From the IMG/VR virus record IMGVR_UViG_3300033076_000593, positions 3,719 through 67,718 of that record: a stretch of 64,000 nucleotides of DNA; one strand, given 5' to 3'. Below are positions 1 to 30,290 of this stretch, in pieces. The notes under the pieces are model-generated. The model was not told where the DNA came from, searched no databases, and was given only the letters and a program-made list of their open reading frames with translations. Every line of letters begins with the position of its first letter. Position 1 is the first letter of the stretch. This DNA comes from a virus (Duplodnaviria > Caudoviricetes). The position numbers and the translations under genes are program-made.

Positions 1-12
1 AGAGAGAAAATC

Positions 13-73
13 TGAAACGCTCGGAGAGGTATGCTCGTGAGAGGTATCTAGGGGTTCGAGTCCCCACGTTTCG
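13..73 (+). ncRNA. truncated tRNA-like element (acceptor stem plus T-arm, no normal D/anticodon arms)
   Basis: tgaaacg 13-19 pairs with cgtttcg 67-73; gggg-TTCGAGT-cccc T-arm at 51-65; only 31 nt between acceptor 5' strand and T-arm. Confidence 0.4.
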
Positions 74-97
74 CTAACCATTTAAATCAATAAAGCC

Positions 98-205
98 ATG
101 GAGACTAAAATCTTAAGAATCGAGGGGAACTTTGAAGTAATCGGGTTCTTCATCAACGGAGTATTAGTACGCACTACGAAGAGACGTGTATACTCTTGGA
201 ACTAA
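98..205 (+). CDS. small hypothetical protein (35 aa, METKILRIEG...)
   Basis: Read by eye; ATG after A-rich leader, TAA at 203-205; below ORF-track cutoff. Confidence 0.5.
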   Translation: METKILRIEGNFEVIGFFINGVLVRTTKRRVYSWN

Positions 206-231
206 ACAATAACCATTTAATACCTAATGCC

Positions 232-396
232 ATGAAACGCACGCAAACAATCGAGGTCGTTCTATTCAGCATGATGCTGTTCAGCACGCTAGTTATCTTC
301 ACATCTATGGTAATGAGAGACGTTACCATATTCGGGATGGGGTTCGTAGCCTTCCTTTACTCAGCAATCGCACTAATTGTAACCCTTAAAAAGTAG
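232..396 (+). CDS. small two-TM membrane protein
   Basis: ATG at 232 follows the same taacc/A-rich leader as neighbours; two hydrophobic segments. Confidence 0.65.
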   Translation: MKRTQTIEVVLFSMMLFSTLVIFTSMVMRDVTIFGMGFVAFLYSAIALIVTLKK

Positions 397-401
397 AAAT
401 C

Positions 402-785
402 ATGGAGATTAAATTAACACACGAGGAGTCGGAGAAAATCTTCCACAACTCACTATGCAATGGACACCAAATCGCTTACTACGGCCTTGAGCTAGACTAC
501 AGCGATGAGGAATACGAGAATGCTATGCAACGCCTGATAGACAGGGACGAAAGCCGTTGCCTAGAGGACGTTTGGATGGAGATGCTGAGAGGCGGTGCAA
601 CGCTGACTCTTGTCGACAACGAGAACGGGGAGGAACCCTCGGTAATCACCTTGGCCGATGTACATGAGCGTGTACAGACAGCCCCTGTACGCCATCTGTT
701 GGATGCCGTTAACGAGCAGGATGACGGGGACACAGCGGACGTGATTCTTCAGACAGTTTTTTACCAAGATGTAATATTCGGATAA
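402..785 (+). CDS. acidic early hypothetical protein
   Basis: 127-aa ORF in tight operon; C-terminal DxADVILQ...FG motif. Confidence 0.75.
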   Translation: MEIKLTHEESEKIFHNSLCNGHQIAYYGLELDYSDEEYENAMQRLIDRDESRCLEDVWMEMLRGGATLTLVDNENGEEPSVITLADVHERVQTAPVRHLLDAVNEQDDGDTADVILQTVFYQDVIFG

Positions 786-797
786 ACAAAAATGGGA

Positions 798-892
798 GAG
801 TGGAGTGCATCACAGGGAGGGTAATCATGTTATGTGAGCATGAAGCAACTGTAATGGTGCAGTAGCTGAAAGACGCCTATGCACTTCCGCTT
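798..892 (+). ncRNA. structured intergenic RNA with SAM-I (S-box)-like sequence elements
   Basis: Long outer stem 798-810/879-892, inner hairpins at 826-842 and 845-866; ordered ATC, GGAGGG, ATGAAGC, GCAAC, AATGGTGC, GCTGAAAGAC. Confidence 0.45.
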
Positions 893-920
893 GACCTTAA
901 CCCTTTAAAACCTAGAAGCT

Positions 921-1211
921 ATGAACAAGCAAAATGTGGATGACCAAATCAGAGACTTCATCGAGTACGCTTACTCGGATGAGGCGGATAGACAAAGGAT
1001 GTTTAACGTCCTACAGGACTACATGGACGAGGTATACCAAGAGCCTAGAGAGGTAATGGTATTCACCTTCGATGTGCGAAATGGACAGGACATCTTTTGG
1101 AAGAAAGCGGTCATGGATATGTCTCCGACAGCGGAGTACATTCCTGCCGAGGAATTACACCTGTGGGTGGCTAAGTACCGAGGCTATGGATGGGAGGTAA
1201 AGGTTAACTGA
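921..1211 (+). CDS. early hypothetical protein
   Basis: 96-aa ORF; its TGA lies within the hammerhead core CTGACGA. Confidence 0.75.
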   Translation: MNKQNVDDQIRDFIEYAYSDEADRQRMFNVLQDYMDEVYQEPREVMVFTFDVRNGQDIFWKKAVMDMSPTAEYIPAEELHLWVAKYRGYGWEVKVN

Positions 1212-1274
1212 CGAGTCTTCAGGAGACGAAAGGATTAAATGTGGTATCACAGCCCTACGGGGTTCCTCTTAACC
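1202..1274 (+). ncRNA. type I hammerhead ribozyme
   Basis: Stem I ggttaa 1202-07/ttaacc 1269-74; core CTGACGA 1208-14; stem II gtct/agac; GAAA 1228-31; stem III agga/tcct; cleavage triplet CUC ending at 1268. Confidence 0.85.
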
Positions 1275-1289
1275 ATTAACATTAAACAC

Positions 1290-1634
1290 ATGGAGAGCAT
1301 GAACGTATTTCAACTGAACATCGGGCTTAACAACAACCCGTACGACTTCGAAACAATTACTAACGCACTGAGACACGCCTTCGAAGGGGAGGTAGTGGAG
1401 ACACGGGAACACATCGGAGAGTGGGAGGGTAATCCTGAGCCAACATTGGTCGCTAAGATTGTGACAGCGATGGACTCCGAGAGTGCCGAGATTCTAACGC
1501 AGGCGATGGCCCTCAAGTTCACACAGGACTGCATCGGAATGAAGTTCAACGATGAGGGTGTGCTAGTGTATAGCCCTGATTACAGGGGAGTGGAGAGGTA
1601 CTCATTCAACGCTGAGTATTTCGTAGAACTATGA
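1290..1634 (+). CDS. putative SAM lyase (T3 SAMase-like anti-restriction protein)
   Basis: GEWEGNPEPTLV and KFTQDCIG resemble the T3 SAMase GCYRE..EEKTV and EWEQDCVLV motifs (recalled); ATG 1290 preferred over 1239, which lies inside the ribozyme. Confidence 0.6.
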   Translation: MESMNVFQLNIGLNNNPYDFETITNALRHAFEGEVVETREHIGEWEGNPEPTLVAKIVTAMDSESAEILTQAMALKFTQDCIGMKFNDEGVLVYSPDYRGVERYSFNAEYFVEL

Positions 1635-1891
1635 ACCAAATAAAATTTACAGCCATGAATACCGAAGAGCAATTGAGACACCGACTAGCTATGGTCGAAG
1701 AGGACCTGAGAGTAATCAGGGAGTTTATCTACATTCAGGGATTGTCTAAGACGTTCGAGGAATCAACGCCATTCTCGGATGAGGCTTGGACTCACCTGAA
1801 CAACATCGATATCGCCTGCGACCTGAACAATGGCGAGTCGCTTACATGGAAACGATTTACTAACTTCAATAAAGAAACACGCACGTTATGA
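1631..1891 (+). CDS. early hypothetical protein
   Basis: ATGA-coupled ORF. Confidence 0.7.
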   Translation: MNQIKFTAMNTEEQLRHRLAMVEEDLRVIREFIYIQGLSKTFEESTPFSDEAWTHLNNIDIACDLNNGESLTWKRFTNFNKETRTL

Positions 1892-2169
1892 GCAGAATCA
1901 CCAAACTTCAGAAACAAATCGCTGACGCACACATCAAGGCGAGCAGAGACGAATCATTCACCAACCCTAAGGTATCATCGATGGAGGAAATGGGGCTGGC
2001 CATGATAAACGGAGAGACCTTCAAGTTCCTGTATGAAGAGATTGCCTTCCGATACGCATCGATGACTAGCCTGATGATGGCTAGCGTGTTGGACCACGAG
2101 AGCAAGTCGTACACACAGGCTGTGTACAAGGGCTTCAAGAACGTACTTAATTCAGTAAACATTAAATAA
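1888..2169 (+). CDS. early hypothetical protein
   Basis: ATGA-coupled ORF. Confidence 0.7.
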   Translation: MSRITKLQKQIADAHIKASRDESFTNPKVSSMEEMGLAMINGETFKFLYEEIAFRYASMTSLMMASVLDHESKSYTQAVYKGFKNVLNSVNIK

Positions 2170-2177
2170 TAAAAGTC

Positions 2178-2390
2178 ATGAAACCGAGTTACCACAACAT
2201 GAAGATGCCGATGGTGAAAGGTATACTAACCTACCCATGCAGAGCCAAGGTAGAATTGAGAGTTCAAATCTACGGAAGAGTGATTGTCTCGATCTTGAAT
2301 TTTAATGACGAGCAACACGTTAGAAACTACGTCAAGTTGATGTATCGCAAGAACAACATGGACGTGCTGACAATTGAGAAACTTAATTAA
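2178..2390 (+). CDS. early hypothetical protein
   Basis: 70-aa ORF with A-rich leader. Confidence 0.65.
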   Translation: MKPSYHNMKMPMVKGILTYPCRAKVELRVQIYGRVIVSILNFNDEQHVRNYVKLMYRKNNMDVLTIEKLN

Positions 2391-2401
2391 CCCCATAACC
2401 C

Positions 2402-2845
2402 ATGAACACTAAAGGACACGTTTATCTGCGGATAAACACACACTACACCGCGACAATTCGCACGCTAGATAACCTACCTGATTACTTAGACAGCCTAGAT
2501 GTTGATAGTAGTTTTGGAGAGGTGGTTGAGGTATCCAACGTCAACAAGGAATTCTTGAATCAGGTAAGGTCTGCTGTGGAGGGGAAGAAGAGCAAGATGA
2601 ATCAGCCCCTTCTAGGTAAGCAGGTCTTCGTGTACAGGAATCAGGCGTATAGAGAGGGTAGAGTGGTCGCTGTGAATGGACAGCACCTCTTGGTTGAATA
2701 CGTCATGCCAAAGGGTACATCAGCGTTGAACCTTATCAAGGGTATCGATGATGCCGACAACTACAGGACAATAACTTACAGGGAAGCCTCGTTACAATTC
2801 GCAGGCTTGGATATGAACTTACTAATTAATAACCCACAAAAATGA
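2402..2845 (+). CDS. early hypothetical protein, possible SH3/KOW-like C-terminal domain
   Basis: GKQVFVY...EGRVVAVNGQHLLVEY beta pattern. Confidence 0.7.
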   Translation: MNTKGHVYLRINTHYTATIRTLDNLPDYLDSLDVDSSFGEVVEVSNVNKEFLNQVRSAVEGKKSKMNQPLLGKQVFVYRNQAYREGRVVAVNGQHLLVEYVMPKGTSALNLIKGIDDADNYRTITYREASLQFAGLDMNLLINNPQK

Positions 2846-3153
2846 ACACCATGGAAAAAATGAAATGGGCTAGAATGGATTCGGCCACAGGTAAAGGAAT
2901 GAACGAGGGATTCTGCGTTAACGATGGAGATGCTTACTTCGTAGACAAAGCAGACCTAGTTAAGTACCTGAGAGAGGAGATGAATGTTGACGAGAACAAC
3001 GAACTATCGGACGAGTTCATCTTGGAAGAGAGTTATCAGGAGGAGGAGGAAGGGTACTACTACTACACCGAGTGGGACGTGGAAGACGAGGAGTATTGGT
3101 ACGAGGAACAGGAGGACGGAACGCTCAAAGAAGTTTGGGCTGATGAATTATAA
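2842..3153 (+). CDS. highly acidic, aromatic-rich early protein
   Basis: EESYQEEEEGYYYYTEWDVEDEEYWYEEQED. Confidence 0.75.
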   Translation: MNTMEKMKWARMDSATGKGMNEGFCVNDGDAYFVDKADLVKYLREEMNVDENNELSDEFILEESYQEEEEGYYYYTEWDVEDEEYWYEEQEDGTLKEVWADEL

Positions 3154-3179
3154 ATTAATAACCATAAATAACTAACGCC

Positions 3180-3560
3180 ATGAACACACAACAAGTAACA
3201 AAGGAAGACCTTTTCGCAATCATTAACAAGCTAGCCATTCAGGTACGAGATGACCTAGCTGAACACATGACATTCTCGGATAATGAAGACACGCTAGAGG
3301 CGGTAAAGACCATTGTCAAGCTAGCCCAACTTCATGACTATGATTGGAGTTATCCCTTCAGCGAGGGCGATACCTACTACACTATCGAACACGATACTAT
3401 TGTCGAGTCGGTGTGGGACGAAGAGAGTAATGAACTATACCTGAGTAACGGGAATAGAATCTACAACTACTCAGACCAACAGTACTTCAGCAGTCTAGAC
3501 GAGGCTGTGACCTACTTTAAAAGTAAAACTAAAACAACCCCTAAAATTTCATTGCTATGA
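3180..3560 (+). CDS. early hypothetical protein
   Basis: 126-aa ORF in operon. Confidence 0.7.
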   Translation: MNTQQVTKEDLFAIINKLAIQVRDDLAEHMTFSDNEDTLEAVKTIVKLAQLHDYDWSYPFSEGDTYYTIEHDTIVESVWDEESNELYLSNGNRIYNYSDQQYFSSLDEAVTYFKSKTKTTPKISLL

Positions 3561-3784
3561 ACGTACTAACAATTAAGAAACGCCCGATGCAGGAACACAT
3601 TGGAGGCAGTCAGGACATCGTATTCCACACCCGTAACAAGGCCCTGTCTAGATTCTTCGAGATGACTGACGAGATGGGCTACGAGGTGGAAGTAAGCTAC
3701 CAAAACAATGCTGTCCTGTATGAATCAGGAGGCAGAGGCCATGACTATAGAATCCAACTTGAACTAACAAACGTATTAGTATGA
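3557..3784 (+). CDS. early hypothetical protein
   Basis: ATGA-coupled ORF. Confidence 0.7.
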   Translation: MNVLTIKKRPMQEHIGGSQDIVFHTRNKALSRFFEMTDEMGYEVEVSYQNNAVLYESGGRGHDYRIQLELTNVLV

Positions 3785-3960
3785 AAGAAACAACATTCTT
3801 CTTCAACGAGGTTGGAGAGACATGCACTATCGAGGTGCATCTGAACCGCAAGCTAGACTATAGGAAGACATTCACCAAGGTGACATCATTCTCTGAGGCA
3901 GTTGCCAAGTATGAGCAGTGGAAAAAAGACCAAGAAACATTTAAATCCGTAATGATATGA
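3781..3960 (+). CDS. small hypothetical protein (59 aa, MKETTFFFNE...)
   Basis: Read by eye; ATGA overlaps at both ends. Confidence 0.65.
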   Translation: MKETTFFFNEVGETCTIEVHLNRKLDYRKTFTKVTSFSEAVAKYEQWKKDQETFKSVMI

Positions 3961-4247
3961 ACGAACAAGAATTTCTGGACTTCATGTACAAAGAGTACAT
4001 CGAGGTAATCGCAATGACTCAGCAGGTTTGTCCAATAACTTATGAACTATTGGATTATAAAACATGTGTAGTTATTGATGCATATGATGGTGATACTCTG
4101 AAAGATACGCAAGCACTATCGCCCAATGCTATTGCCGAGGACAGCCTGAGAATAATCATAACCGACTTTGCGATTATGAGAATGCGACCTGTTTTCCTAT
4201 CTTTGAACCCACTATTAAAAGACACAATCAAATCACTAAACAATTAA
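3957..4247 (+). CDS. early hypothetical protein
   Basis: ATGA-coupled ORF. Confidence 0.7.
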   Translation: MNEQEFLDFMYKEYIEVIAMTQQVCPITYELLDYKTCVVIDAYDGDTLKDTQALSPNAIAEDSLRIIITDFAIMRMRPVFLSLNPLLKDTIKSLNN

Positions 4248-4251
4248 TCCT

Positions 4252-4410
4252 ATGGAACGAGACGAGAAAATCATTGTCGGATGCGTAGCTGTGCTTATTG
4301 CCACGATATACTTCAGCATCCTGTTTAACATGAAGGCTATAGCCATAGCGAGCATGCTTATGCTAGTCGCTGCCTTCCTAGTCGCACAACTTATCGAATC
4401 ATTTAAATAA
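4252..4410 (+). CDS. small two-TM membrane protein (52 aa)
   Basis: Read by eye; MERDEKIIVGCVAVLIATIYF...; fills the gap between neighbours. Confidence 0.6.
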   Translation: MERDEKIIVGCVAVLIATIYFSILFNMKAIAIASMLMLVAAFLVAQLIESFK

Positions 4411-4423
4411 ACCAAATACACCC

Positions 4424-16733: not shown

Positions 16734-19700
16734 TTATTTACTTTCAATTTTTTTATCTTTAACCTTATAATAATTAGTTTTTATAGGCTTAACATTTGTT
16801 AATTTCTTTTCGTATTGATACAAGTCGTAGTAGTATTTTTCCATAGCTTGCTGACCTCCAGCCTCGCTAGCTTCATACATGCTGTAATCGCTATCTGATT
16901 CAATCGATTTAGTAATGTAATCCGTAACCTCTTGATCGTATTCTTCCTTAGCAAATCCTTCTAAGAATTTACCAGAAGCGATATCATCAAAGAATGTTAA
17001 GTTGTCAAAATCTAGTTTTGGATAGCTAGTAGGATCAACATCATACTTCAACTTCTTCTTAGCGTCAAACTTTGCCTTCTCTGCTAAAAATTTAATAACA
17101 GCGTACTTGCCTTCATCATTTCTATCCTTCAAAGCATATCTATTATTCTTTATTTCATCTTGAATGTAATTCTTGAATAACATAGTAGCTTCTTGAGTTA
17201 GAGCTTCAGATCTTAACTTTTTCTTTTCAGCCGAAACAAATTTGCTATTGTCTTGTACCGATAGAACACCAATACCATTTTGATCAAAGTCTAAAACACC
17301 TGCCACCAAATTATACTTTCCGTCACTTGACATGATTACAACGTCTTGTTGAATAGCTGCTTCATTCTGTAAAGATTTGATAAAGTCTCTTGAGAATGGT
17401 ATTTGCTTACCTTCGATAGCCAATATTAAGTTTGTTGCCATGATTGACGCAGAAAGCATTTTGTTTAAGTCGGCAGTTTCATCATTAAACAACTTGCCTC
17501 CTTCTTCCCATAGGTCGTAAATTGTAGCCTTATTGTGTCCTGGCTCATCAAGATAATCTTTATATAATTTCTGAGTTTCTTGCAATAACATGTACACAGG
17601 AGGAACACTTGTAGCAAAAAGCATAGCGGCAGTTTTTTCTATAGCATTGTATTTCTCAAAGTCAATTCCTTCTGTGAAATAAAGAGATTGTAAAACTTCA
17701 TCAATAGACTGCTTGTCTGCGCCTTTCATATTTCTAGCAAATTGTAACATAGATATAGCCATCGCTCTACCTGAAGCACCATATCTAGATGTGGTTACGT
17801 TAGCCGCAAGGTTGATACCCATAGAGGCAATCATTTTCCACATCTTGTCAGGATTAGTAAACATCTCTAATGTTTCCTCACCTTCTTTTTTCTCCTTGTC
17901 GTCATCGCTGAAATATGCTTTTTGAATGCCTTTTGTAACAGCAAATATCACAACATACATAGTTAAGCTGGCAGATGAAGTGGCAACTTTAAACAAGCCT
18001 CTTCCTAAGTCAGCACCGTTTTTCATTCGGTCTTCTTTAGTAATACCTCTCGCAGCTCTTTTCGCTCCGTATTGCAAGTTGCTAACGTCTCTGTATACGA
18101 AGTTGTTAAACAAGTTCAACATCTGAGCAACCGTATCATTTGAAGATACTAGTCCGCGTCCAACATCAGACTTGCTTCCTTTTCCAGTCAAGGCCATTTT
18201 AGGAACACTAAATAAATCAGGAATCCATCTGTAGTTTGTTCTTGCCTGACCTTTGAACGATCCACCTTTAATAGATTGAATTCTTTGATCAGCAAATGAA
18301 GCTGCTCTATCTAAATCATATTTGTAATCGTTGTCATCAAAATGTTTAGACTCAGAATAATCCTCTCCAGTCAAACGCTTAAACTCAGCTCTGAAATAAG
18401 ACATCCATTCTCCTGGAGTTAGAGGAGCTGTTAAGTTGTGCAATGTTGCAAGAGTATTTTCTAGTTGTTGAGAGAATATATTCTTTGTAACATTTCCTTT
18501 CTTAGTTGTAACCTTAGCTTTGAAATCCCAATTCAAATTCAATACAGGGCTGCCAAATTTATTCATAAGATTTGTAGCCTCTCTGTAAGCTTTTGGATTA
18601 AGACCTTTAAAGCTTAGAGTTCTTAAAACACCCGATCCTAAGTTGGTCAATGTCTCAGCAGTACTTCTGGCAACACCGATCAAAAGTTTTGCAGCGAATG
18701 CCTTTGTCAACTTGGTCAAGAAGTTATTTGCAGATCTGCTAAGTTGATGGTCGACACGATTTCTGTTAGATTGTTGTATCGCATTTAATGTTTTGATATC
18801 AGCTTCTCTTCCTTCTGATCGTGCAGCCTCTCTTGCATTTCTGAACACATCATTAACGTAAGATATTGCATTGCTAATATAAAAATCTCTTGCTGCTTCA
18901 AATGCATTGTTAGCTACTAGAGAGTCAACATTAAATTGTAAAGGTCCAGCAGGATCTTTTGATACACGACTGTAAGAAGATTGAGATCTTACAGTGCCTC
19001 CAACAGCACCTCCATATCCTAACTCAACATCAGAGTCTTCAGATATTCCCTTTCCAATATATCTACGAGGAGAGTAGAATTCAGTAAGCTCACCGTTCAC
19101 ACCTCTTACAGCGTTAGCGTTGATGATTAGCTCACCAGAAGTTCTGTTAGCTTCTCTGAATGCCGCATAAAGCTTTTGCTCACTGTCAGACATAACAGAA
19201 GAAGGATCGTTGATGAAAGCTTCGTATATCTTTCTGTAGTCTAGTTTGCCATCTGTAACAAAGGCTGGGTTAGACAACAAGTTATTGTATACGTCTTCAA
19301 CAATATTCAACACTCCCTCTTCATCGTATATAGCACGAGTAGCAGAATCTTCTTTCAATTGATTTCCCAACCAATCGTTTGTTTTCTCGTTGTATTGATA
19401 AGCCTTGTGGCCAGAGTCTAAGATGTGAGAAAGTATACCAACTCTGTGTTTGAAATACTTCTTCGCATTTACAGAACCGTTTGCGGTTTTAACTCTGTCT
19501 CTCAAGAATAAGAATTTACGATTTGCAAATGATAAATCAGCAGTCTTCTTGTAGTAAGAATCCAAAATCTGATTTACTTTGTCGCTCATCTTCTTAAACG
19601 CTCTGTCTACAGGAGCAATAACAAACTGATACAAAGCATCTCCCTCTTTTAATCCTAGGACATCTTCCCATTGTGCAGCTTCTTCAGAAGATAACTTTCT

Positions 19701-22700
19701 CATCAAAAGGTTAACACCCTTAGTCAACTTATTGTAAATATCTCCCAACTGATCTACAATTCTTAATCCTGCCTTTTGAGATCGAATCTCTACACGATTA
19801 ACCATTTCTCGAACTTCTTTTTCTGGCATAAATCCATACTCCATTCTGTCGAGAGCTTCGTTCAATTTCAATAAGTCTTTTACATCCAAGTTCATTAACT
19901 CAGAAGCAGATAAGCTTCTTAATTTTTCAAACAAGCTCTTCTGTTCTCCAACAAACAAATCATTGGTAGTAATATTAGCAATTTTCTGGAACAAGTCATC
20001 AGTCAACCCTTCTTTCAAGATATCAATTTGATCTTGGTGACCATCTTCATAAACTCTCAATCCATTCTCCATGGTGTAGAGGTCTCCTGAAGCCATTTGC
20101 TCGTGTGTAGCAGCGTCAATCAAACCTTGGTTATACAAAGAGTCTAATATTCTTTTAGCTTTATTCACGGCTCTTACAAACGCTGTGTATTGATCTAGAT
20201 CGTCAATAGTCATAGCCTTAATCTCCGTCAAAGCATCTGTGTAATCAACCAATTCAAATTCTTTCTTACCCAAGTCTGCGCTAAATGCTTTGTCAGCTAA
20301 AGACATATCTAATCCCGTATGATCAGGAATTGGTTTTGCCAATCTAGCAACAGCATCTAAATAACGATCCATTTCAGCATCTGTTAACAGAGGGTTGTTA
20401 TCAGTATCAAACAAAGGAATAGACAAGAATCTCAACACGTCTTCAGTAAACTCGTTGTGTCTTCTCTTAAGAGCCATCTTTCTATTTGAAGCTAAAGCGT
20501 CCATCTTAGCAGCGAACTCTTTATTAGCAACAATCTTGTCAACATACTGCATGAAGTTGTCGATTTGCTTGTCGGTCAAAGAGGTAATTGCTCCAGTAGC
20601 TCTGTTAACAATAGCAGAAATTTGCTGGCTGTTTAATCCGCTTAGCTTAGCTAGCTTCAAATACTCTTTAACAAAGTATCTGAAACTGTTGCGCTTGTTC
20701 TTCTCGGCAGTCTTAGCTTGCTTGAAATCTTCTTTTGTTTTAGCCAACTCTTCTTTCGCCTCTTTCAGTTTTTCTTTCAACTTAAATACATCAGGTCTTT
20801 CATCACCTCTCTTAGCCTTAAGCTCAGCCTTGTTGATTTTATCCCACTGTGCATTTACCGCATTTTTCAATTCGTCAACTGTAAAGAACTCCATGCCATC
20901 TTTGGTAGCGTCAGCAAAGGCTTTGTCTATTGCGATAGACTTAGAAGAGCCATCCATTTCAGAATAAATCTTGGCAACAATAGCAATTTCTTCTGCTAAT
21001 TTGTTTTTCAAGTCTCTCTCTATATTGTCCTCAAACTCTCTCTTCTTCCAAGCAGACATGTCTCTAAATCCTTTGATCTTTCTAACCTTGGCGATCAAGT
21101 CGTTTACTGTATTTAAAATACCAGCACCCTTCTTCACCTTGTTAGCAGACTCGTCAAGAAGTAAAACATATTCTAGCTTATCGCTATTCTTCATTTGGAA
21201 TTTAGTAGTAACACCTTCTTTAGTTGTCAATTCATAAGTAGAATCTTCTGGAGTTCCTTTAACAACATTTTTTGCCAACACTAAAGCCCCCACTTGAACT
21301 ACTTCCTCAGCAGATACTACAGGCATTCCATCAGCTTTATCGTAGAAGAAGCTGTGACGGAATGGATTCATTCCAACCTGAACCCAATTAGGATCGTTCA
21401 TCAACTCTTCAGCTCTTGCATGCACAGACTCTGGACTTTCGTTAACCCAATTTCCGTAAATTCTAGCAATAGTAGTTTTTTCTTTACCAGTAGCAATGTT
21501 TAATGCAGCTAAAGGCTCTACGCCAAAAGAAACATTTTTTATAACTGCTGTTTGTCCATAGCCTATTGATTTTCCTCTGATGGTTCTACCTGCTGATTCA
21601 TGAACTGAAACAACATATACATTGTAATCATTATATGCTGGGATATCTAATCTTAAAGCAACCTCATCTCCATCTTGTAAATCAATATTTAATCCGACAA
21701 TACCTATTTCAACTTTATTACTTGTTAAAGAAGATACAATTTCCTTAATTGTAGGCAATTTCGGAACTTCTAACATTGGGATTATTGGCATGTTCTTTCT
21801 AACAATATCAATAAATGTAGATGGTTTTATCTTACCTTCTTTCAATTGAACGGCTGCTTCCTGAACGTCAGGATTTCTCTTCTGTCTATTACTTACTTTA
21901 TTATCATCTTTCCATTTTTTAACATCCGCTTCAGTCAATCCAGCCTCAGCAAGAGTTTCAACGTAGCTAAGTTTTTTATTATTAATAGCTTGAGCTTTAG
22001 ATCTTGGAGAATATATTCTCAATAGAAGTTGATCTTTTCTAGCAATATCCTCAGTAGACTCTAGAGTTTTAGCCATTTTTTCTTCATCACTTAATCGATT
22101 TCTTCTAGCTGCATTTCTAGCTTCTGTTTCTCCAGCTGATGATTGGTAATATTCGTATTTGCTAGCACTAGTGATAATTCCTTCTCTTTCTTTTTCGCGT
22201 CCAGATTTTGCGTTCTCTTTTGCATTTGCCTGATCCGTAGAGCGAATTGTTTCCTCAATTCTCTTTTTAATAGTATCAATAGTATTTTGTCTGGACTGAA
22301 TATATCTAACACTTTGTTCTGATAACGCTTCAATATTACTCCAATTTCTTGCTCCTTCTATTTCTCTCTCTTTTTCTTTAACCTGATTTTGTAAATAACT
22401 TAACACATGTATAACCTCATCCGTAATAGATTCTGGATTTGCACCCTGTTCAAAAAATTCTCTACCTTGAATATAATGCTGAAGCTCATGTATAATGTTG
22501 CCTATCAATACAGATGGTAAAAGAGCGTCTTTTGATGAAAGTGTTATAACAGGTTTTATATAATCATTAGCATAATATATACTAGCTTCTCCAGAAGAAT
22601 AATCTGGATCAAATTCAACTACAATATCTTTTATTGAATATTTGCGTTTAACCCCTCCAAAACCAGTATTACTCTCAAAAGAGTCTTCTTTACTTCCATA

Positions 22701-25700
22701 CGCTTTATATATTTCTGGAGCATCAAAAATATCTGTTAACTTAGATCTAAAAACAGTTGGCTTCTTTGGGTTATCAAACTTACCCTTAAATATTTTATCT
22801 ACACCACTTTCAAGCAATTCTTGAGAAGGATCAATACCCCCTGCTATTTTTTCAGCAAGATAATCTCCGATAGATCTTCCTGAAGCGATCGCCTCATTTA
22901 CTATCTTACTAATATATTCTTTTCTTATTTCAACCATCCCCTCTTCAGAAACTAGCGTCTTAAGGTTTCCGTCTGGAGCTTCTATTCTCCATAGATCATC
23001 AGCACCTCTTTCCCAGTTAGTTTGAATTCTAATTTCTTCTTTAGACTTGCCTTCTTTTTCCATTAATCTAGCAACATCTAAATCATACATTAGTCTCTTT
23101 GCATTCTTCATTCTAGCGGCCCCGATTGTGCCAATGATTTGAGCTTTTGACTTTGGTAGATTCTTGGTTTCCTTGTCAACAATTTCATTAGCTTGAAACA
23201 TTTCAAGGGCTGGGTTAAACTCAATAGATGAAGGGTAGTCTTTATCAGGTCTTTGATAAAATTCTCCTTTCATTTTCTCTGTTGTCTCAGCTCTCAAATC
23301 TTTACCCCACTTAACAACAATCATTGGGTATCCCAACTTAGCAGCTTCTTGAGCGATGAATGCAGCTTGTTTATTAGGATCAAAAGTTTGTCCTGGATAC
23401 ATCTTATCAAACGTAGCTTTTGCAGCATCGTATAGATTCAATGGATCCTCGTTGAAAGGATATACAAGATCTTTAGGAATTCTTACAACATAACCATACT
23501 TGCCAGACACGTCTAATACGTCAGGGCGAGTGTAGTACATGCTGATATTCAAACCAGGTCTCTCATCTCTTCCTGTTCTTGCTGTGTTCTTACCAAAGTA
23601 CTTAGGATCGATAGAGGAGATTTTATTAGGAGAGTAGTGGTAGAATAAGTAATTACCCTGGCCATCTTCAGTCATATGCTTAGTTAGCTTAGCCTGATCT
23701 ACAAGAGATTCGCCAGCTTTAGCCTGAGCTTTAGATTTTATAGTTGCAGGTTTTGAAGAAAGCTCTTTTGCTTTTTTCTTAAATCCATCTGAAGCGTAAC
23801 TAGATTTTTCAATCGATCCTAATTTTTCATATAATCTTTTTTCAAAATCCCATATCTTTTGCTGAACATCGGCAGGAGTAGAATTTAATTTTTTAGCAAC
23901 AATTGCAAACGCCTCGTCAGCTAATTTTCTTTTTCTAAGACCTGATTTAGTTAATGCCCATGGTGATGTTAAAGCCTTACCTTTTTCTGATAAAGACTCG
24001 CCTGCTAATCTTGCCATAGTTCTAGCGTACCACATGTCTTTTGTAACGGTAGAGTAGTCTCCTATACGATTTAATATGTACGATCCTAACTTAACTCCAG
24101 TAATACCAAAGACTCCCATCCCTCCATTTTCCTTATCAAAATATTCGTTTTCAGTGATGGCTTTAGGTCCTGTTGTTGGCTTGCCCATCATATTTGAAAT
24201 TTCTTCATATGAATGTTTAGACAAAACCCACTCTACAGCTTTGGCAATATCATTATTAAAATGTTCTAATACTTTATTAAATTTCTCCAAAGAATCTACA
24301 GCGTAAGCCTTTGCGATTTGCTTGTACACTACATTTCCTTGCTCGTCAAATTTAGGCTTGCCTGTATCATACCTGCCTTTTGGCCCCATTTCCCACTCGG
24401 TAGCTTGCTCGTCTGAATATCCAGATAAGGTTCCTGTAGTCATATATTTATCAAACACCTCAAGACCTTTAGATGAGTCAAACTCAGGATCTGCTGAAGG
24501 TGAAGCAAATGCGCTAACAATGTGGTATAATGAAATTTCTTCATTTGTCAATTCTCTTCCGTATCTTTCCTGTGCAAATTTTTGCAACTCAGGATTCAAT
24601 CTGTCTGGAATATCCTCGTCATAAAAACCAATATACTCAGAACCCTTTATACTTGACCAGGCATTTATTTCTTTTAAGATGTGATCGCTAAACTTTTTAA
24701 CAATTTCTTTATCGGAAACATTCTCAATTTTATCATCAAAAAGTTTGTTTTCATTAACCCAACCTTCGATGTAATTAGAGATGTCTATTAGACTTTTAAA
24801 CACAGGGGTTTTCTGTTTAAACAGTTTTTCTACCTGAGCTTTATTAGAAGTTTTATCAACTTGTCTTGTCTCTCCGTCATATTTAATTTCTCCCCCGTAA
24901 TAAACTTTGTTTGCCAATGTTTGGAAGAATTCCATAATTTCTTCTGGAGAAGACGTGTCATCAATAGGCTTAAGTTCAGGACCGAAATACTTAGCAATAA
25001 GTTGGTTGATATATTCAGCAACAGACTTTAAAAATGATTTAACATTAGGATCTGACTCGTTTAGTTGAGACAAAACAGCTGTAAGTTCAGACACATATTC
25101 TTCTGCACGGGTAACATCATCGTAAGCCTCATCCGAAGCTAAAGCTTCTGCAAATTCATCTAATGAGATTTCCATCTCCACTCCATTCTCATCAATAGCT
25201 TTTATCTTTTTGCCTTTAGCAAGTTCAGCTATTTTTGATTTAAACTGAGCAAACAGTTTAGGACTATCTCCAAACATTTTAAATAACACAGCGTGTGTCA
25301 TTTCATGCGCTACAGTACGAAGATTAGCAGATTGCAAGTTAATAGCAATAACCCCTTTTTCAACCCCTGGGAAAACTGTAAACAACCCCTTAGAATCCGC
25401 TGAAGCTTTAACAGATTTTGCATAATCTGCATAATCGCTTTCGTTATCAAAAACAATAATATCAAAATTTGGAAGTACCGATTTTAATGTTTTCAATGCT
25501 TTAACCGCCTGATCTACTATTCTCTTTTGATATGGAGTTTTTGCCGCTTTTGCTAATTCTTTAGCTCTATTATTATCAGAAACATTATATCCTTTTGAGT
25601 TAGCGTTATCTAAAACTATGTTATTAACCGCATTAATTAAATCATCTGTCGAAGCTTGAGCATTTTCTTGATTAGAAGTCTCTATCTTATTGCCGTCTTT

Positions 25701-28700
25701 ATCAAGCAAGGTATCGAAATCGTATTCAATAGAAAAGTCTTGTCTCTTACCACCTAAATTAATTGTGCTGTAATAGTTATCTTGAGACTCAAACTTGTCG
25801 TTTCCTTTGACTCTAGGGTGATAAGATCCATCTTGATATACCAATCCATCATGTGTGGCCACAGATTCTTGATCAAATTCTATCGCAAAAGCAACAGCGT
25901 CTTCTCTAGATAAATTAGGAACAAAGAAGCTTAGCTCTGAGTTATCATACTTTCCAAATATTTCATCAGGAACATATCCTCTTTCTTCTAGCCAAGTTCT
26001 AGCAGCTTGATTTCTTTGAGTGTTCTCTTCATCGCTAAGAGCTTTTCTTTGTGGGTTCCAAGCTGTAAGCATTCCAAAAGCACCATTTCTAATAGTCTCT
26101 TTAAATGATTTACGGTCAGGGAAAGAAGACTCAGGCAAATTGTTTTTAGCGTTCTCGTCCCAAGCCTCGTCTCTAACTACTTCTTTCTTCCCACCTTCTT
26201 GGGCAGTACCTTCCCCTTGGACGCTTGATTCCATTCCTGTACGTTCACCCCCTTCTTCTCCAGCTTTTTGCGGTTGGCCTGGAAGAACTTCTGTTGTGCT
26301 TGACTTTTGTACGGCATCTTCTTGTTGTTTTTGTTTATTAGCTTGCTCTCTTGCTTTTAACAATTGAGTGTTAATTAATTCTTTTGCTACAGGAAGGTTT
26401 TCTTCAACCATTCCTCCAGATATCTCAGGGGCAAAGTTTACATCTTTAACAGTGCCATCTTGATTCATTGAGTAAGATACTACTCCCAAATTAGATAGAG
26501 CGTTAGCAAGACTTTCTCCAGCTTCTCTTCTCTTTTTATCAGCGTTAAAAGAAGCAAGTATCTTATTGTCTACCTCTTCAATTTTCGCCATAGACTCTAC
26601 GTCAACAACGCCTAGCTTCTCAGCTTCTTTGATAGCTTTAGTTAGAGTTTGTTTTTGAACATACAAATCTAATATCTCAGCCTTAGCTAAGTCACCAGCC
26701 TTCTTGAAAGGAACTACTTTTTCTAATTCCTTGTAAGTATTATTGATCTTTTGGAAATCCTTATACTGATCGGTATTCTTCACATCGGCATTTCTCTTCT
26801 CCGCTTGAGCTAAAATTTCTTTACCGTTTTGACCGATTTCTAATTGCATGAATTTCAGACCTGCATTCTTATCAGTATTTTCAGAAAGTATTTGTCCAGC
26901 TGTAGTTATAGTTGCGCTAGTTGTACCAATCAAAGCACCAACAGCACCTTGAACTAAAACTTCTTTAGCGGCTTCTGGAAGAGTGTCATTTTTTACATCA
27001 GCTAAGTTCAATATTGTTGACTCTGTAACACCAGAAGCCATTTCTTCACCAGACTCTTTAAGACCGTGAGTAAATATTTTAAATCCAGCATTTCTAGTCA
27101 CTTCATATGCATTTGCTAAAAGTGTCTTAGATATCTGTTGAGCAGTTAATCCATTAGCCAACCCTCTGGAAATAATTTCAGCAGAGTTCTTTTTAATAGT
27201 AATTCCAACAGCATCTGGAAGCTCAGGTACTAAAGCTTCAATGGAAGCCAATGTTCCAGCTGTTAAAGTGCCGAATAGCATAGCTAATCCCTTATCGTAT
27301 CCAGCATCTTCAAACTGCTTAACCATCTCACCTTCCATTACAAGGAAGTTGTATGTAATAATACCAGCTGCTCCACCAGCCATAGAAGCACCCACGTTAT
27401 ACAAAAGATTAGGCATCTGTGATATAACATTGCTATACCACCACATTCCGCTATACTCTTCTAAGTAAGGGTTGACAGCCATCTCTGACCATCTAGTTTT
27501 TCTGAACTCAGTGTTTTGCATGTTAGCATCAACCTCATCCCATGTATTACTATCATCTGTAAATACAGATTCGATAACATTATATGTTTGAAGAAGTCCT
27601 TCGCCAATACCTTTATTTGCAGTAACAATTGTTTTTGCAGTAGATTCTAAAAATCCATCTTCTTTAGCACTCTTTTTCAGGTAAGCATTCCACTCATCCT
27701 CTTTAATCTTGGCTCCAGCGTATGCGCCTGAATAACCTCCATTAACAACAGAATATTGAGGGTTCTCACGAAGGTTGATATCCAAGTTATCTATGGTCGC
27801 TTTTATTGACTTTAAATCGGCAAAACCCTTGTCTTTAGACACGGTGTTTAGCTTGGAACTTAAGAATGCTATTTCCTCGTAATCATCTTTATGAGCATCA
27901 TAAAACTTTTGAAGCTTATCAGCATCTCCACCTAAAGATTTGCTAGACTCTGCTATTTTATTTCTCTCGTCTATTAATTGCTTTTGTTTTTCAAGCAACT
28001 CGTTAACCTTAACAGAGTTTTCATTTTTAATGTAAGACTCTCCTTTCTCGTTCTTTTCTAAATAAGGTTGAAGCTCTCCCTGTAGCTTATCCAGATCGCC
28101 TATCTTTTTGTTTAGTAAATCTAGCAACTCTTGAGCCTTATCTTCATCTGCACCGTCCTTAAGGCGTAGACCGTCACCCTCAATATCATAGTATTGCTTA
28201 AGATCCTCGGAGATTTTTTCAACCTCAGTATTAAGCTTATTTAAATCTGCCGATATCTTTGAAGCTTTTGCAGATCCTTCAGTATCCTTTAAAGTAATCT
28301 GATTGTCTTTTATGTCTGCATATTGAGCAATCTCTGTCTCTATCTCTTTAATAGATTTGTCGTAACCAGAAATAATCTCGTTGTTCTTCTTTATCTCTTG
28401 AAGATTGACATCTAACTCAGCTTTATCTATGCCTAATTTAGATTCTTCCTCAGCTATTTTAGCGTTTAATCTTTCTAGTCTCTTAGAATCTTTGTCGGCA
28501 GTTCTTAAAGCTCCAGAAGCTTTTAAATCATCTGTTTTTAAGTATGCAGATGCGCTATAAAAAGAAGTTACATCATTTAAAGCAGCTCTTCTAATATTCA
28601 TCGCCCATTGAGCATCAGCCTGATATCCCTTACCCATTTCGCCTGCCGCCCTATTAGCAATATCATTCTCATGAATTTGCTTCATGTGGTCAAGGTCCTC

Positions 28701-30290
28701 TTGCTTAAACTTACCAGTTTGAATACCTCTTTCGATGTATTTCAAGTCCATAAAATAAGCAACATCTTCGTTCAATTTATTGTAAAGATCATCAGCAGCT
28801 TTAGCTTTAGCCTGCTTTTCAAGCTCTACAACTTTTGAGAAATCATATTGAATAGGGTTGCCAAACTCATCTACCTCTGGTAATTTAATGTTTTGAACAT
28901 ATTCAGAGTTTGCAATCAAACGCTTTAAGTCATTCTGATTTCCAATAAAGAATTCTTTTGGAGAAACACCAATGCTACTCAAGATTTGAGCAGATTCAGA
29001 GACATTTATATTGTTGAAAAACTCTTCGTCAATGTTATCAACATGTGCATTGTTAGCAACTATTTGCTCTGCACTTTCCCTGTTTTTTCTTTTGTTAATC
29101 CCTTGAAAAAAAGTACCCTCTCCTGGGCGGCCAATTATACCTCCAATAATATTAAACTTGCCATCTAAATTTCTAGCTTGTTCTTTTTGAACCTCCTTGT
29201 TTTTCTTAATAGTACCTCTAAGAACATCCATAAATGTTTTAGGAGCTTCTTCACTAGATTTAGCAACAATTTCTTGCTCACCCATCAAACCCTCGATATT
29301 TCCTAAGTCGTATTGGCCTTGGTGCTTAGTTAAAGCTAAGTCTACAAGAGCTGTTGGAGAGTTTTCGTCCCAATTTGGATTGCTAGCTTTAATCTCTTCC
29401 TTAAGTTTAGTCTCTTCCTCGGCAGTCATCCCATGGAATAAAGAAACTGTCTTTCTATTAAGGTCATTCCACGCCTCGTCATTACCAGTGTAATTACGAA
29501 TTGTAGAAGAAGATTTTTTGATATAATCATTAAATACAGCGTCACCTACCTTACCAGTATAATTGTTTGCTGTCTTTACTACTTTGCTTACTTTGTTTGG
29601 AGAGTAGTCGTTATCCTCTTGCTCAGAGAAATAAACTATTTCATATGTGCCATCCCCATTATCCTTATACCCCAATACTTGGTCAACACCATACTCAGGC
29701 CCTTGTTGATCAACTGCTGGATCGTTTTTTCTTAAGAACGAGAACTTCTTTTGCTTCTCTTTCTTTTTACTTCCAGGTTTTTCTGGATCATCTATTTCAA
29801 TATCTTCCTCAACAACTTCAGGCTCTTCAAAAAACCCACCGCCTGTTGATTGAGATAATAAGTTACTAGCTTTAGTTTTAACGTCTTTTAAATCAGCTAC
29901 ATCCTGAACGAAATTCTGAGGAGCAGGAGCTGCAAATGTTTGTGTAGGCTCCGCCTGTGCAGGCTCACCTACATTGTCGATAACAGTACCTTGTTGGTTA
30001 TCAGCAGTAACCTGATCGGTTCCTTCTGTAGTCGCTAATGGCTGCTCTGTAGGCTGAGATAATTCTGCCTCTCCATCCTCTTTTTTTTTTCCAGAAATCA
30101 GATTATCAAAATCCGACAGAGTTTGTACACGCAAATGTTCAGGAGCGTCAGGAGAAAATTTTAATGCCTTTGCAATTCGAGTTTTATAAACATCATTGCT
30201 TGACAATAAAGTATCAAATTCTTCTTTATCAGAATTAATCTTACCACTTCTTTTCAAATACGAATACAATTCTTCTGTTTCTAAAGCCAT
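16734..30290 (-). CDS. 4518-aa polyvalent internal virion/DNA-ejection protein
   Basis: SAM-lyase-like domain, two HExxH zincins, HhH-GPD-like, ART-like and LPD23-like domains between helical regions; follows the pilot genes. Confidence 0.85.
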   Translation of the reverse strand: MALETEELYSYLKRSGKINSDKEEFDTLLSSNDVYKTRIAKALKFSPDAPEHLRVQTLSDFDNLISGKKKEDGEAELSQPTEQPLATTEGTDQVTADNQQGTVIDNVGEPAQAEPTQTFAAPAPQNFVQDVADLKDVKTKASNLLSQSTGGGFFEEPEVVEEDIEIDDPEKPGSKKKEKQKKFSFLRKNDPAVDQQGPEYGVDQVLGYKDNGDGTYEIVYFSEQEDNDYSPNKVSKVVKTANNYTGKVGDAVFNDYIKKSSSTIRNYTGNDEAWNDLNRKTVSLFHGMTAEEETKLKEEIKASNPNWDENSPTALVDLALTKHQGQYDLGNIEGLMGEQEIVAKSSEEAPKTFMDVLRGTIKKNKEVQKEQARNLDGKFNIIGGIIGRPGEGTFFQGINKRKNRESAEQIVANNAHVDNIDEEFFNNINVSESAQILSSIGVSPKEFFIGNQNDLKRLIANSEYVQNIKLPEVDEFGNPIQYDFSKVVELEKQAKAKAADDLYNKLNEDVAYFMDLKYIERGIQTGKFKQEDLDHMKQIHENDIANRAAGEMGKGYQADAQWAMNIRRAALNDVTSFYSASAYLKTDDLKASGALRTADKDSKRLERLNAKIAEEESKLGIDKAELDVNLQEIKKNNEIISGYDKSIKEIETEIAQYADIKDNQITLKDTEGSAKASKISADLNKLNTEVEKISEDLKQYYDIEGDGLRLKDGADEDKAQELLDLLNKKIGDLDKLQGELQPYLEKNEKGESYIKNENSVKVNELLEKQKQLIDERNKIAESSKSLGGDADKLQKFYDAHKDDYEEIAFLSSKLNTVSKDKGFADLKSIKATIDNLDINLRENPQYSVVNGGYSGAYAGAKIKEDEWNAYLKKSAKEDGFLESTAKTIVTANKGIGEGLLQTYNVIESVFTDDSNTWDEVDANMQNTEFRKTRWSEMAVNPYLEEYSGMWWYSNVISQMPNLLYNVGASMAGGAAGIITYNFLVMEGEMVKQFEDAGYDKGLAMLFGTLTAGTLASIEALVPELPDAVGITIKKNSAEIISRGLANGLTAQQISKTLLANAYEVTRNAGFKIFTHGLKESGEEMASGVTESTILNLADVKNDTLPEAAKEVLVQGAVGALIGTTSATITTAGQILSENTDKNAGLKFMQLEIGQNGKEILAQAEKRNADVKNTDQYKDFQKINNTYKELEKVVPFKKAGDLAKAEILDLYVQKQTLTKAIKEAEKLGVVDVESMAKIEEVDNKILASFNADKKRREAGESLANALSNLGVVSYSMNQDGTVKDVNFAPEISGGMVEENLPVAKELINTQLLKAREQANKQKQQEDAVQKSSTTEVLPGQPQKAGEEGGERTGMESSVQGEGTAQEGGKKEVVRDEAWDENAKNNLPESSFPDRKSFKETIRNGAFGMLTAWNPQRKALSDEENTQRNQAARTWLEERGYVPDEIFGKYDNSELSFFVPNLSREDAVAFAIEFDQESVATHDGLVYQDGSYHPRVKGNDKFESQDNYYSTINLGGKRQDFSIEYDFDTLLDKDGNKIETSNQENAQASTDDLINAVNNIVLDNANSKGYNVSDNNRAKELAKAAKTPYQKRIVDQAVKALKTLKSVLPNFDIIVFDNESDYADYAKSVKASADSKGLFTVFPGVEKGVIAINLQSANLRTVAHEMTHAVLFKMFGDSPKLFAQFKSKIAELAKGKKIKAIDENGVEMEISLDEFAEALASDEAYDDVTRAEEYVSELTAVLSQLNESDPNVKSFLKSVAEYINQLIAKYFGPELKPIDDTSSPEEIMEFFQTLANKVYYGGEIKYDGETRQVDKTSNKAQVEKLFKQKTPVFKSLIDISNYIEGWVNENKLFDDKIENVSDKEIVKKFSDHILKEINAWSSIKGSEYIGFYDEDIPDRLNPELQKFAQERYGRELTNEEISLYHIVSAFASPSADPEFDSSKGLEVFDKYMTTGTLSGYSDEQATEWEMGPKGRYDTGKPKFDEQGNVVYKQIAKAYAVDSLEKFNKVLEHFNNDIAKAVEWVLSKHSYEEISNMMGKPTTGPKAITENEYFDKENGGMGVFGITGVKLGSYILNRIGDYSTVTKDMWYARTMARLAGESLSEKGKALTSPWALTKSGLRKRKLADEAFAIVAKKLNSTPADVQQKIWDFEKRLYEKLGSIEKSSYASDGFKKKAKELSSKPATIKSKAQAKAGESLVDQAKLTKHMTEDGQGNYLFYHYSPNKISSIDPKYFGKNTARTGRDERPGLNISMYYTRPDVLDVSGKYGYVVRIPKDLVYPFNEDPLNLYDAAKATFDKMYPGQTFDPNKQAAFIAQEAAKLGYPMIVVKWGKDLRAETTEKMKGEFYQRPDKDYPSSIEFNPALEMFQANEIVDKETKNLPKSKAQIIGTIGAARMKNAKRLMYDLDVARLMEKEGKSKEEIRIQTNWERGADDLWRIEAPDGNLKTLVSEEGMVEIRKEYISKIVNEAIASGRSIGDYLAEKIAGGIDPSQELLESGVDKIFKGKFDNPKKPTVFRSKLTDIFDAPEIYKAYGSKEDSFESNTGFGGVKRKYSIKDIVVEFDPDYSSGEASIYYANDYIKPVITLSSKDALLPSVLIGNIIHELQHYIQGREFFEQGANPESITDEVIHVLSYLQNQVKEKEREIEGARNWSNIEALSEQSVRYIQSRQNTIDTIKKRIEETIRSTDQANAKENAKSGREKEREGIITSASKYEYYQSSAGETEARNAARRNRLSDEEKMAKTLESTEDIARKDQLLLRIYSPRSKAQAINNKKLSYVETLAEAGLTEADVKKWKDDNKVSNRQKRNPDVQEAAVQLKEGKIKPSTFIDIVRKNMPIIPMLEVPKLPTIKEIVSSLTSNKVEIGIVGLNIDLQDGDEVALRLDIPAYNDYNVYVVSVHESAGRTIRGKSIGYGQTAVIKNVSFGVEPLAALNIATGKEKTTIARIYGNWVNESPESVHARAEELMNDPNWVQVGMNPFRHSFFYDKADGMPVVSAEEVVQVGALVLAKNVVKGTPEDSTYELTTKEGVTTKFQMKNSDKLEYVLLLDESANKVKKGAGILNTVNDLIAKVRKIKGFRDMSAWKKREFEDNIERDLKNKLAEEIAIVAKIYSEMDGSSKSIAIDKAFADATKDGMEFFTVDELKNAVNAQWDKINKAELKAKRGDERPDVFKLKEKLKEAKEELAKTKEDFKQAKTAEKNKRNSFRYFVKEYLKLAKLSGLNSQQISAIVNRATGAITSLTDKQIDNFMQYVDKIVANKEFAAKMDALASNRKMALKRRHNEFTEDVLRFLSIPLFDTDNNPLLTDAEMDRYLDAVARLAKPIPDHTGLDMSLADKAFSADLGKKEFELVDYTDALTEIKAMTIDDLDQYTAFVRAVNKAKRILDSLYNQGLIDAATHEQMASGDLYTMENGLRVYEDGHQDQIDILKEGLTDDLFQKIANITTNDLFVGEQKSLFEKLRSLSASELMNLDVKDLLKLNEALDRMEYGFMPEKEVREMVNRVEIRSQKAGLRIVDQLGDIYNKLTKGVNLLMRKLSSEEAAQWEDVLGLKEGDALYQFVIAPVDRAFKKMSDKVNQILDSYYKKTADLSFANRKFLFLRDRVKTANGSVNAKKYFKHRVGILSHILDSGHKAYQYNEKTNDWLGNQLKEDSATRAIYDEEGVLNIVEDVYNNLLSNPAFVTDGKLDYRKIYEAFINDPSSVMSDSEQKLYAAFREANRTSGELIINANAVRGVNGELTEFYSPRRYIGKGISEDSDVELGYGGAVGGTVRSQSSYSRVSKDPAGPLQFNVDSLVANNAFEAARDFYISNAISYVNDVFRNAREAARSEGREADIKTLNAIQQSNRNRVDHQLSRSANNFLTKLTKAFAAKLLIGVARSTAETLTNLGSGVLRTLSFKGLNPKAYREATNLMNKFGSPVLNLNWDFKAKVTTKKGNVTKNIFSQQLENTLATLHNLTAPLTPGEWMSYFRAEFKRLTGEDYSESKHFDDNDYKYDLDRAASFADQRIQSIKGGSFKGQARTNYRWIPDLFSVPKMALTGKGSKSDVGRGLVSSNDTVAQMLNLFNNFVYRDVSNLQYGAKRAARGITKEDRMKNGADLGRGLFKVATSSASLTMYVVIFAVTKGIQKAYFSDDDKEKKEGEETLEMFTNPDKMWKMIASMGINLAANVTTSRYGASGRAMAISMLQFARNMKGADKQSIDEVLQSLYFTEGIDFEKYNAIEKTAAMLFATSVPPVYMLLQETQKLYKDYLDEPGHNKATIYDLWEEGGKLFNDETADLNKMLSASIMATNLILAIEGKQIPFSRDFIKSLQNEAAIQQDVVIMSSDGKYNLVAGVLDFDQNGIGVLSVQDNSKFVSAEKKKLRSEALTQEATMLFKNYIQDEIKNNRYALKDRNDEGKYAVIKFLAEKAKFDAKKKLKYDVDPTSYPKLDFDNLTFFDDIASGKFLEGFAKEEYDQEVTDYITKSIESDSDYSMYEASEAGGQQAMEKYYYDLYQYEKKLTNVKPIKTNYYKVKDKKIESK

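Follow-up and report, generated by a model that had tools for sequence, protein, structure and literature searches.

Hammerhead ribozymes that cluster around prophage genes, including the anti-restriction gene ardA, have been shown to cleave (Perreault et al. 2011, PMC3088659). In phage T3, the early genes, among them the one encoding the S-adenosylmethionine (SAM) lyase gp0.3 (SAMase), are annotated with RNase III sites on both flanks. These systems are compared here with a locus in a 64,000-nt stretch of viral DNA (the window), which covers bases 3719-67718 of the 67,718-bp IMG/VR virus record IMGVR_UViG_3300033076_000593. On its plus strand, a structured intergenic element (elemA), an open reading frame (ORF) of 96 amino acids, a hammerhead ribozyme and a SAM-lyase-like gene follow one another (Table 1). 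Taken as a whole, the locus probably represents general hammerhead punctuation of an early transcript, combined with a divergent SAM lyase and a spacer element that is not a riboswitch.

The window hammerhead shares with those of Perreault et al. the canonical core, the open stem I and an intergenic site in a phage polycistronic unit, and both adjoin an anti-restriction gene (ardA there, the putative SAM lyase gene here). It differs from them, and from the Rfam hammerheads, in two respects: in its stem III, two hairpins and a conserved UUAAA joiner make up a three-way junction, and its stem I is a fixed 6-bp helix, overlapping the upstream stop codon and starting a standard leader. Cutting would occur in early polycistronic RNA beside an anti-restriction gene, as at the annotated T3 sites R0.3 and R0.5, but in the window it would be performed by the RNA itself and not by a host enzyme.

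Sequence and pairing analysis confirms the ribozyme as a genuine type I hammerhead. The open stem I (GGUUAA/UUAACC, 6 bp) borders the core C3-U4-G5-A6-N7-G8-A9, which reads CUGACGA at 1208-1214 and includes the TGA with which ORF 921-1211 ends. Stem II (GUCU/AGAC, 4-5 bp) is followed by GAA at 1228-1230 (G12-A13-A14), and stem III is closed by the 4-bp helix AGGA/UCCU. Both the A15.1-U16.1 and the G10.1-C11.1 pairs are present, and U1267 (U16.1) precedes C1268 at the cleavage-site position H17, where any base except G is allowed. A descriptor search on both strands of the 67.7-kb genome returned this single type I hammerhead, and no second one was found even with a stem III of up to 400 nt. 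Relaxed hits in shuffled genomes averaged 0.13 per genome, and in none of 100 were the observed stem lengths reproduced. A covariance model (R1) of 59 hammerheads from other contigs, with the window copy left out, scores it at 34.3 bits (E 1.5e-8), as the sole hit in 64 kb, with a runner-up at 10.8 bits. The complete hammerhead claimed in the original prediction, which was made from the letters of the window, is upheld by the full core and three helices, by its uniqueness against shuffles, by the R1 score and by the copies found in relatives.

Judged from these copies, the window hammerhead is a member of a large phage family that is placed right after a stop codon and ~20 nt before the next ATG. 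A core-only sequence pattern matched more than 119 viral contigs, and 110 of the 126 loci examined carry a total of 198 full type I hammerheads, with 1 to 14 copies per related record. The commonest stem I among the 198 is again GGUUAA/UUAACC, with the ATG ~20 nt past the cut. Four IMG/VR contigs (L002-L005) encode homologs of the 96-aa ORF (66-81% identity), and each has a canonical type I hammerhead at, and overlapping, the stop codon of this gene, with differing stem III sequences. The 96-aa gene of the original prediction is thus present and conserved, although family searches matched it to nothing. In three of these contigs (L003, L004 and L005), an additional hammerhead lies just 5' of the 96-aa gene, where the window has a 135-nt spacer.

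Hammerheads of this family stay below the Rfam gathering cut-offs in all scans, for both Hammerhead_1 and RAGATH-1-hammerhead. The copy of one relative, for example, scores 28.5 bits with RAGATH-1-hammerhead and 19.2 bits with Hammerhead_1. No SAM riboswitch and no other ribozyme class was returned by Rfam scans of the window, of its segments 700-1700, 780-930 and 1190-1290, and of positions 1-1000 of its upstream continuation (L001). Two viral records were also seen to be rich in hammerheads: the 39.8-kb fragment G004 (the record of L072) has 14 of the window's family, and the 66.8-kb G005 has seven of the same phage family.

The branched stem III is common to the related loci L125, L126 and L129. 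At the orthologous junction, stem III is between 16 and 123 nt long, the longest insert being that of L127 (L127:3663-3821), which is closed by a 7-8-bp helix. Further branched forms were sought in contigs found by a pattern of the core plus UUAAA; the filter demanded stems I-III and the UUAAA word, and left hairpins a and b free. At least 13 distinct viral sequences have the two-hairpin layout (alignment A7). Two-sided changes affect every one of the five pairs in hairpin a and three of the six in hairpin b. Over the whole alignment, 20 of 26 pairs have changed on both sides, and 98.1% of the cells are paired, compared with 35-48% in controls with slid partners. Conserved in sequence are the UUAAA joiner, the G-U/G-A-U loop and the GCC...GGU ends. 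By these comparisons, the branched stem III is a recurrent hammerhead form that the Rfam models miss. Full-text literature searching found no paper that describes it, which is not proof of novelty.

Such a conserved and covarying branch, in a stem that varies so strongly in length at one junction, could also be read as a sensor or protein-binding domain, formed by the UUAAA junction, the GUAU-loop hairpin and the GCC...GGU hairpin, that would make cleavage before the lyase gene conditional. Perreault et al. (PMC3088659) have suggested that large loops possibly permit control of the ribozyme. The branch is so small, however, that a folding aid or a tertiary contact is likelier, and branched hammerheads adjoin varied genes, a context that suggests no ligand. 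A sensor role of the branch is considered quite improbable.

The gene downstream of the hammerhead encodes a protein whose nearest homologs (63-98% identity) are all unnamed. By itself, it gives weak matches to two unnamed PHROGs only, and a peptide-pattern search of IMG/VR returned none. Searching 1.84 billion representatives with a profile yielded 338 relatives, a few of them within proteins of 1856-2822 aa. Among 74 aligned family members, 24 match the Pfam family PF23780 (S-AdoMet_lyase; best E 6.8e-7) and seven match phrog_2226, which T3 gp0.3 matches at 6.4e-54. With hhalign, the family aligns to T3 SAMase at E 0.002, pairing EPT with EEKT, TQEC with EQDC, and LVY with LVY. In the T3 record (L128, NC_003298, 901-1359), the SAMase gene is labeled 'SAM-dependent methyltransferase', as is phrog_2226; this label is misleading and masks SAM-lyase matches.

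The AlphaFold model of the protein, predicted from a deep alignment, has a pLDDT (predicted local distance difference test) of 93.9. Foldseek ranks Svi3-3 first and second (6zm9, E 1.6e-4, then 6znb), followed by the T3 SAM lyase (8bb1) and a SAM-AMP lyase. In VIA-align, 6zm9 gives a Z of 10.9 with a root-mean-square deviation of 2.4 over 98 residues, the following entry reaching 8.8, and an earlier, poorer model had the identical top fold match. The family has G12, E50 and Q79 as invariant residues, with G43-x-Y/W45 (Trp45 in the window) and Q79-E/D80 also conserved, and its IGLN segment resembles V17-G18-L19-N20 of Svi3-3. In the known lyases, only Gly56, Glu69 and Gln104 are strictly conserved, with Tyr58 and Glu105 alongside (Guo et al., PMC7877911). 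By order and spacing, G43-x-Y/W45, E50 and Q79-E/D80 would be the counterparts of Gly56/Tyr58, Glu69 and Gln104/Glu105.

In comparison with T3 gp0.3 and Svi3-3 (6ZM9, 7OCK/8BB1; PF23780), the protein thus has its best fold match and the same order of motifs in the SAM lyases, and, like gp0.3, it is encoded by an early gene at the genome end. It is shorter (114 versus 129-152 aa), has a Trp at the Tyr58 position and lacks a profile match of its own. Known SAM lyases act as homotrimers, with their active sites where subunits meet. On profile transitivity, predicted fold and motifs, the SAM-lyase gene postulated earlier is confirmed as a distant member of the family and is read as a divergent SAM lyase. 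Its product probably splits SAM into methylthioadenosine (MTA) and homoserine lactone early in infection, which would blunt SAM-dependent defenses. The 338 cluster representatives, some of them inside giant proteins, would then make up a short, widespread SAM-lyase-like clade.

SAM-AMP lyases acting in type III CRISPR defense have reportedly been the subject of a published paper, and SAM-AMP lyases (9gad and 9gab) are among the best fold matches. Together with the position of the family in a separate, shorter clade of low identity to the assayed enzymes, this leaves some room for another substrate of the same fold, such as the type III CRISPR signal SAM-AMP, or for ligand binding only. The G, E and Q-E/D residues that grip the methionine part of SAM appear to be kept, however, and cleavage of SAM is the simplest reading; the alternative is regarded as unlikely.

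Beside the lyase gene, the arrangement of hammerheads in relatives is variable. L003 and L004 have one on either side of the gene; in L005, L125, L127, L179 and L050, a hammerhead begins at most 6 nt from the lyase stop codon; and in L125 and L129, a 74-aa ORF stands between the branched hammerhead and the lyase gene. L002 has its lyase gene upstream of the 96-aa gene. From the window genome, the downstream copy has been lost. In relatives, nearly every early junction has a hammerhead of this family, regardless of the adjoining gene. As they stand beside nearly all early genes, ~20 nt before the next start, the tie between hammerhead and lyase is generic. Hammerheads flanking prophage genes are already known from the work of Perreault et al. 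The locus is a clear added case of ribozyme-punctuated phage early transcripts, and not a new kind of system.

In the mechanism that we propose, the hammerhead would cleave itself between C1268 and U1269. The 3' end of the upstream mRNA would carry the folded ribozyme with a 2',3'-cyclic phosphate, and the lyase mRNA would begin with a 5'-OH and the standard leader, which is short and unstructured (UUAACC plus an A-rich part). Stability and translation of each cistron would thereby be uncoupled from those of its neighbors, in a manner resembling the host RNase III sites around the T3 SAMase gene. Cleavage of this kind would give each gene a uniform short leader, a natural counterpart of engineered ribozyme insulators.

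The original prediction had gone further, and combined a SAM-I-like (S-box) leader, the hammerhead and the lyase into an RNA-controlled SAM-depletion module. In that model, elemA is a SAM or MTA sensor that acts with the hammerhead to tune early expression of the lyase. The element does fold stably, with a minimum free energy (MFE) of -33.4 kcal/mol (z -2.90; equal folding in 2 of 200 shuffles), although the wider 140 nt reach a z of only -1.8. It shares with SAM-I (RF00162) a multi-helix junction and a few consensus-like words in order (GGAGGG, AUGAAGC, GCAAC...GGUGC and CUGAAAGA), and it would belong to the same operon as the SAM lyase. Against this, no Rfam family was matched at E<=10 by elemA, whether the scan covered 151 nt, 1 kb or the whole window, and neither RF00162 nor RF01725 (SAM-I/IV) has a match in the whole genome. 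The MFE and centroid folds are three-way junctions without P4, so there are three helices and not four as in SAM-I, and neither a K-turn nor, in these pseudoknot-free models, a pseudoknot is evident. In the proposed P1, one of the pairs that would contact the ligand is an A.C mismatch, where SAM-I requires A-U. Neither a terminator-like site nor a start-masking platform is found near 786-920; the ATG at 921 sits 29 nt past the fold, in a standard leader.

The position and the distribution of elemA also speak against a SAM-responsive leader. It precedes the 96-aa gene, and a cut by the hammerhead would part it from the lyase mRNA. Outside near-identical relatives, no homolog was found, either by nhmmer in 1.09 Mb or by a structure model (R2) in 0.84 Mb of hammerhead-bearing loci. 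The near-identical contig L129 shares it, with a lone U-to-C change that converts a U.G pair into C-G, and in relatives of ORF 402-785 the downstream sequence is unrelated. Spacer 786-920 is thus, as far as fold and comparison go, a lineage-specific structured element and not a SAM riboswitch, and the S-box-like leader does not stand. The sensing model is considered extremely unlikely. Nor do the three parts of the supposed module co-occur consistently among relatives, with elemA limited to near-identical ones and the order of hammerhead and lyase variable; they are neighbors in a putative early polycistronic operon, and the proposed RNA-controlled module is not supported.

As the 135-nt spacer occupies the junction that holds a hammerhead in L003, L004, L005, L125 and L127, with the same TAACC leader behind it, elemA might instead be another RNA-processing signal that replaces these hammerheads, for example a substrate of a host RNase III-type enzyme. 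Its 13-bp stem, stacked on a 7-9-bp hairpin, would give about 20 bp, and the flanking sites of the T3 early genes offer a precedent. This idea is an analogy, however, and elemA is not conserved, which leaves it a minor possibility. Still less probable, and in our view very unlikely, is that release of the lyase mRNA is conditional, either through the branched stem III as a metabolite- or protein-dependent control domain or through 797-892 as a new processing or sensing RNA. If true, this would be a natural allosteric ribozyme within a counter-defense operon.

A limited similarity was seen between spacer 792-829 and the lyase codons 1413-1437 (I-G-E-W-E-G-N-P), in the form of two words of 12 and 15 nt with one mismatch each and an 11-nt insert between them. 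An origin of the spacer as a remnant of the lyase gene was considered and rejected, as the 27-nt similarity is too weak and its score is reached by 2 of 500 shuffles.

Several observations weigh against our reading of the locus as hammerhead punctuation with a divergent lyase and a non-riboswitch spacer. The Hammerhead_1 model scores the window copy at 12.1 bits (101-nt scan) against a cut-off of 34, a low score that would result from disturbance of the alignment by the 29-nt stem III insert. No tertiary contact between stems I and II is evident, which weakens the case for activity at cellular Mg2+. The pair statistics of stems I-III in alignment A5, which underlies R1, are partly circular, as its members were chosen by a descriptor that demands pairing. 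The window genome has one hammerhead yet five leader motifs, so that not every junction requires a cut. On the side of the lyase, the single ORF has no SAM-lyase match in Pfam, PHROG or PDB sequences, and the hhalign probabilities are low (12-14%; 14% against T3 SAMase). The ferredoxin-like fold is widespread, with ACT and PII-like folds at Z 7-9, and the motif equivalences were drawn from order and spacing and not from residue-level superposition.

The genomic setting is probably that of a phage early region. The first 10 kb of the window hold small ORFs on the plus strand, and a minus-strand block encodes the terminase, the portal, structural proteins and a giant protein of 4518 aa. Blastn found no DNA-level match between window 1-5000 and GenBank phages. 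Over the first 4 kb, neighboring ORFs touch or overlap, and just two gaps exceed 30 nt, 786-920 and 1212-1289. No sigma-70-like promoter was predicted in 1-3000, where the lone terminator-like site (1705-1720) is weak and lies 3' of the lyase gene. With abutting ORFs, no predicted promoter and a terminator-like site only beyond the lyase gene, the region from elemA to the lyase fits a single polycistronic transcript. Searches with the ESM Atlas (both small proteins) and PADLOC returned nothing informative.

Table 1. Features of the locus and of the giant-protein gene, in window positions.
Feature	Position	Strand	Remarks
Structured intergenic element (elemA)	797..892	+	13-bp closing stem, two inner hairpins
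Leader with TAACC motif	898..920	+	Precedes the ATG at 921
96-aa ORF	921..1211	+	Stem I and some of the hammerhead core are formed by its final codons and TGA stop
Type I hammerhead ribozyme	1202..1274	+	Predicted cut C1268/U1269
Branched stem III	1231..1267	+	AGGA/UCCU; junction UUAAA; hairpin a UGUG-GUAU-CACA; hairpin b GCCC-UACG-GGGU
21-nt A-rich leader	1269..1289	+	Predicted 5'-OH end of the lyase mRNA after the cut; arrangement recurs at other loci
114-aa divergent SAM lyase family protein (predicted)	1290..1634	+	Family profiles, predicted fold, motifs
4518-aa polyvalent-type protein	16734..30290	-	Pfam LPD23 (polyvalent-protein domain), Phage_L5_gp82, DUF3293
DUF3293 / S-AdoMet_lyase-like stretch	25854..26069	-	Residues about 1408-1479 of the 4518-aa protein

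A second SAM-lyase-like domain had been proposed in the giant protein. This claim is supported by the DUF3293 match (residues 1408-1477, 40.8 bits, cut-off 25) and by phrog_2226, which matches the same stretch at E 3e-6. Other results are less favorable: PF23780 remains under its cut-off there (20.8 bits, cut-off 28), and neither BLASTP nor the family hidden Markov model matches the giant protein to ORF 1290. An hhalign comparison of the ORF 1290 family with residues about 1390-1530 gave E 0.0024, with the G-K-Y, E and Q-E-S motifs aligned. A SAM-lyase-like stretch in the giant protein is therefore plausible, if weakly supported. From the position of its gene among structural genes, the protein would be packaged in the virion. 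A role as an N4-like virion RNA polymerase was also considered and dropped, as no polymerase domain was found. Given the lyase call for 1290-1634 and the weaker lyase-like stretch, it is reasonable to suppose that one phage has both an injected and an early-expressed lyase, the stretch in the giant protein possibly acting on SAM at entry. Such a pair may bear on the escape from type I restriction-modification, from BREX and possibly from SAM-AMP signaling.

The leader motif TAACC[ACT]TT[TA]A occurs on the plus strand at 75, 210, 380, 898 and 1270, that is, only in the first 1.3 kb and each time ~20 nt 5' of a start codon. A hammerhead precedes just the last of these five copies. Leaders of a similar kind, also without a ribozyme, were observed at 1634-1659 and 2157-2182. 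The ribozyme-less TAACC-type leaders could be relics of lost hammerheads or an independent signal.

Ahead of the first early ORF, ~500 nt of DNA are apparently non-coding (window 12-74 and about 300-800 of L001). The final 100-190 nt of this stretch are kept in L003, L005, L125 and L127. The conserved end, on the side of window 12-74, has a tRNA-like fold that consists of a GAAACG/CGUUUC stem, a GUGA-capped hairpin and a T-arm (GGGG-UUCGAGU-CCCC), and the pairs covary. Neither ARAGORN nor Rfam called it, and a UAACCA leader follows directly after it. The tRNA-like piece may be a host tRNA-processing site that sets an mRNA 5' end. Elsewhere in the window, at a site without an ARAGORN call, Rfam gave a tRNA match of 100 nt at 60821-60920, with a score of 35.1 bits.

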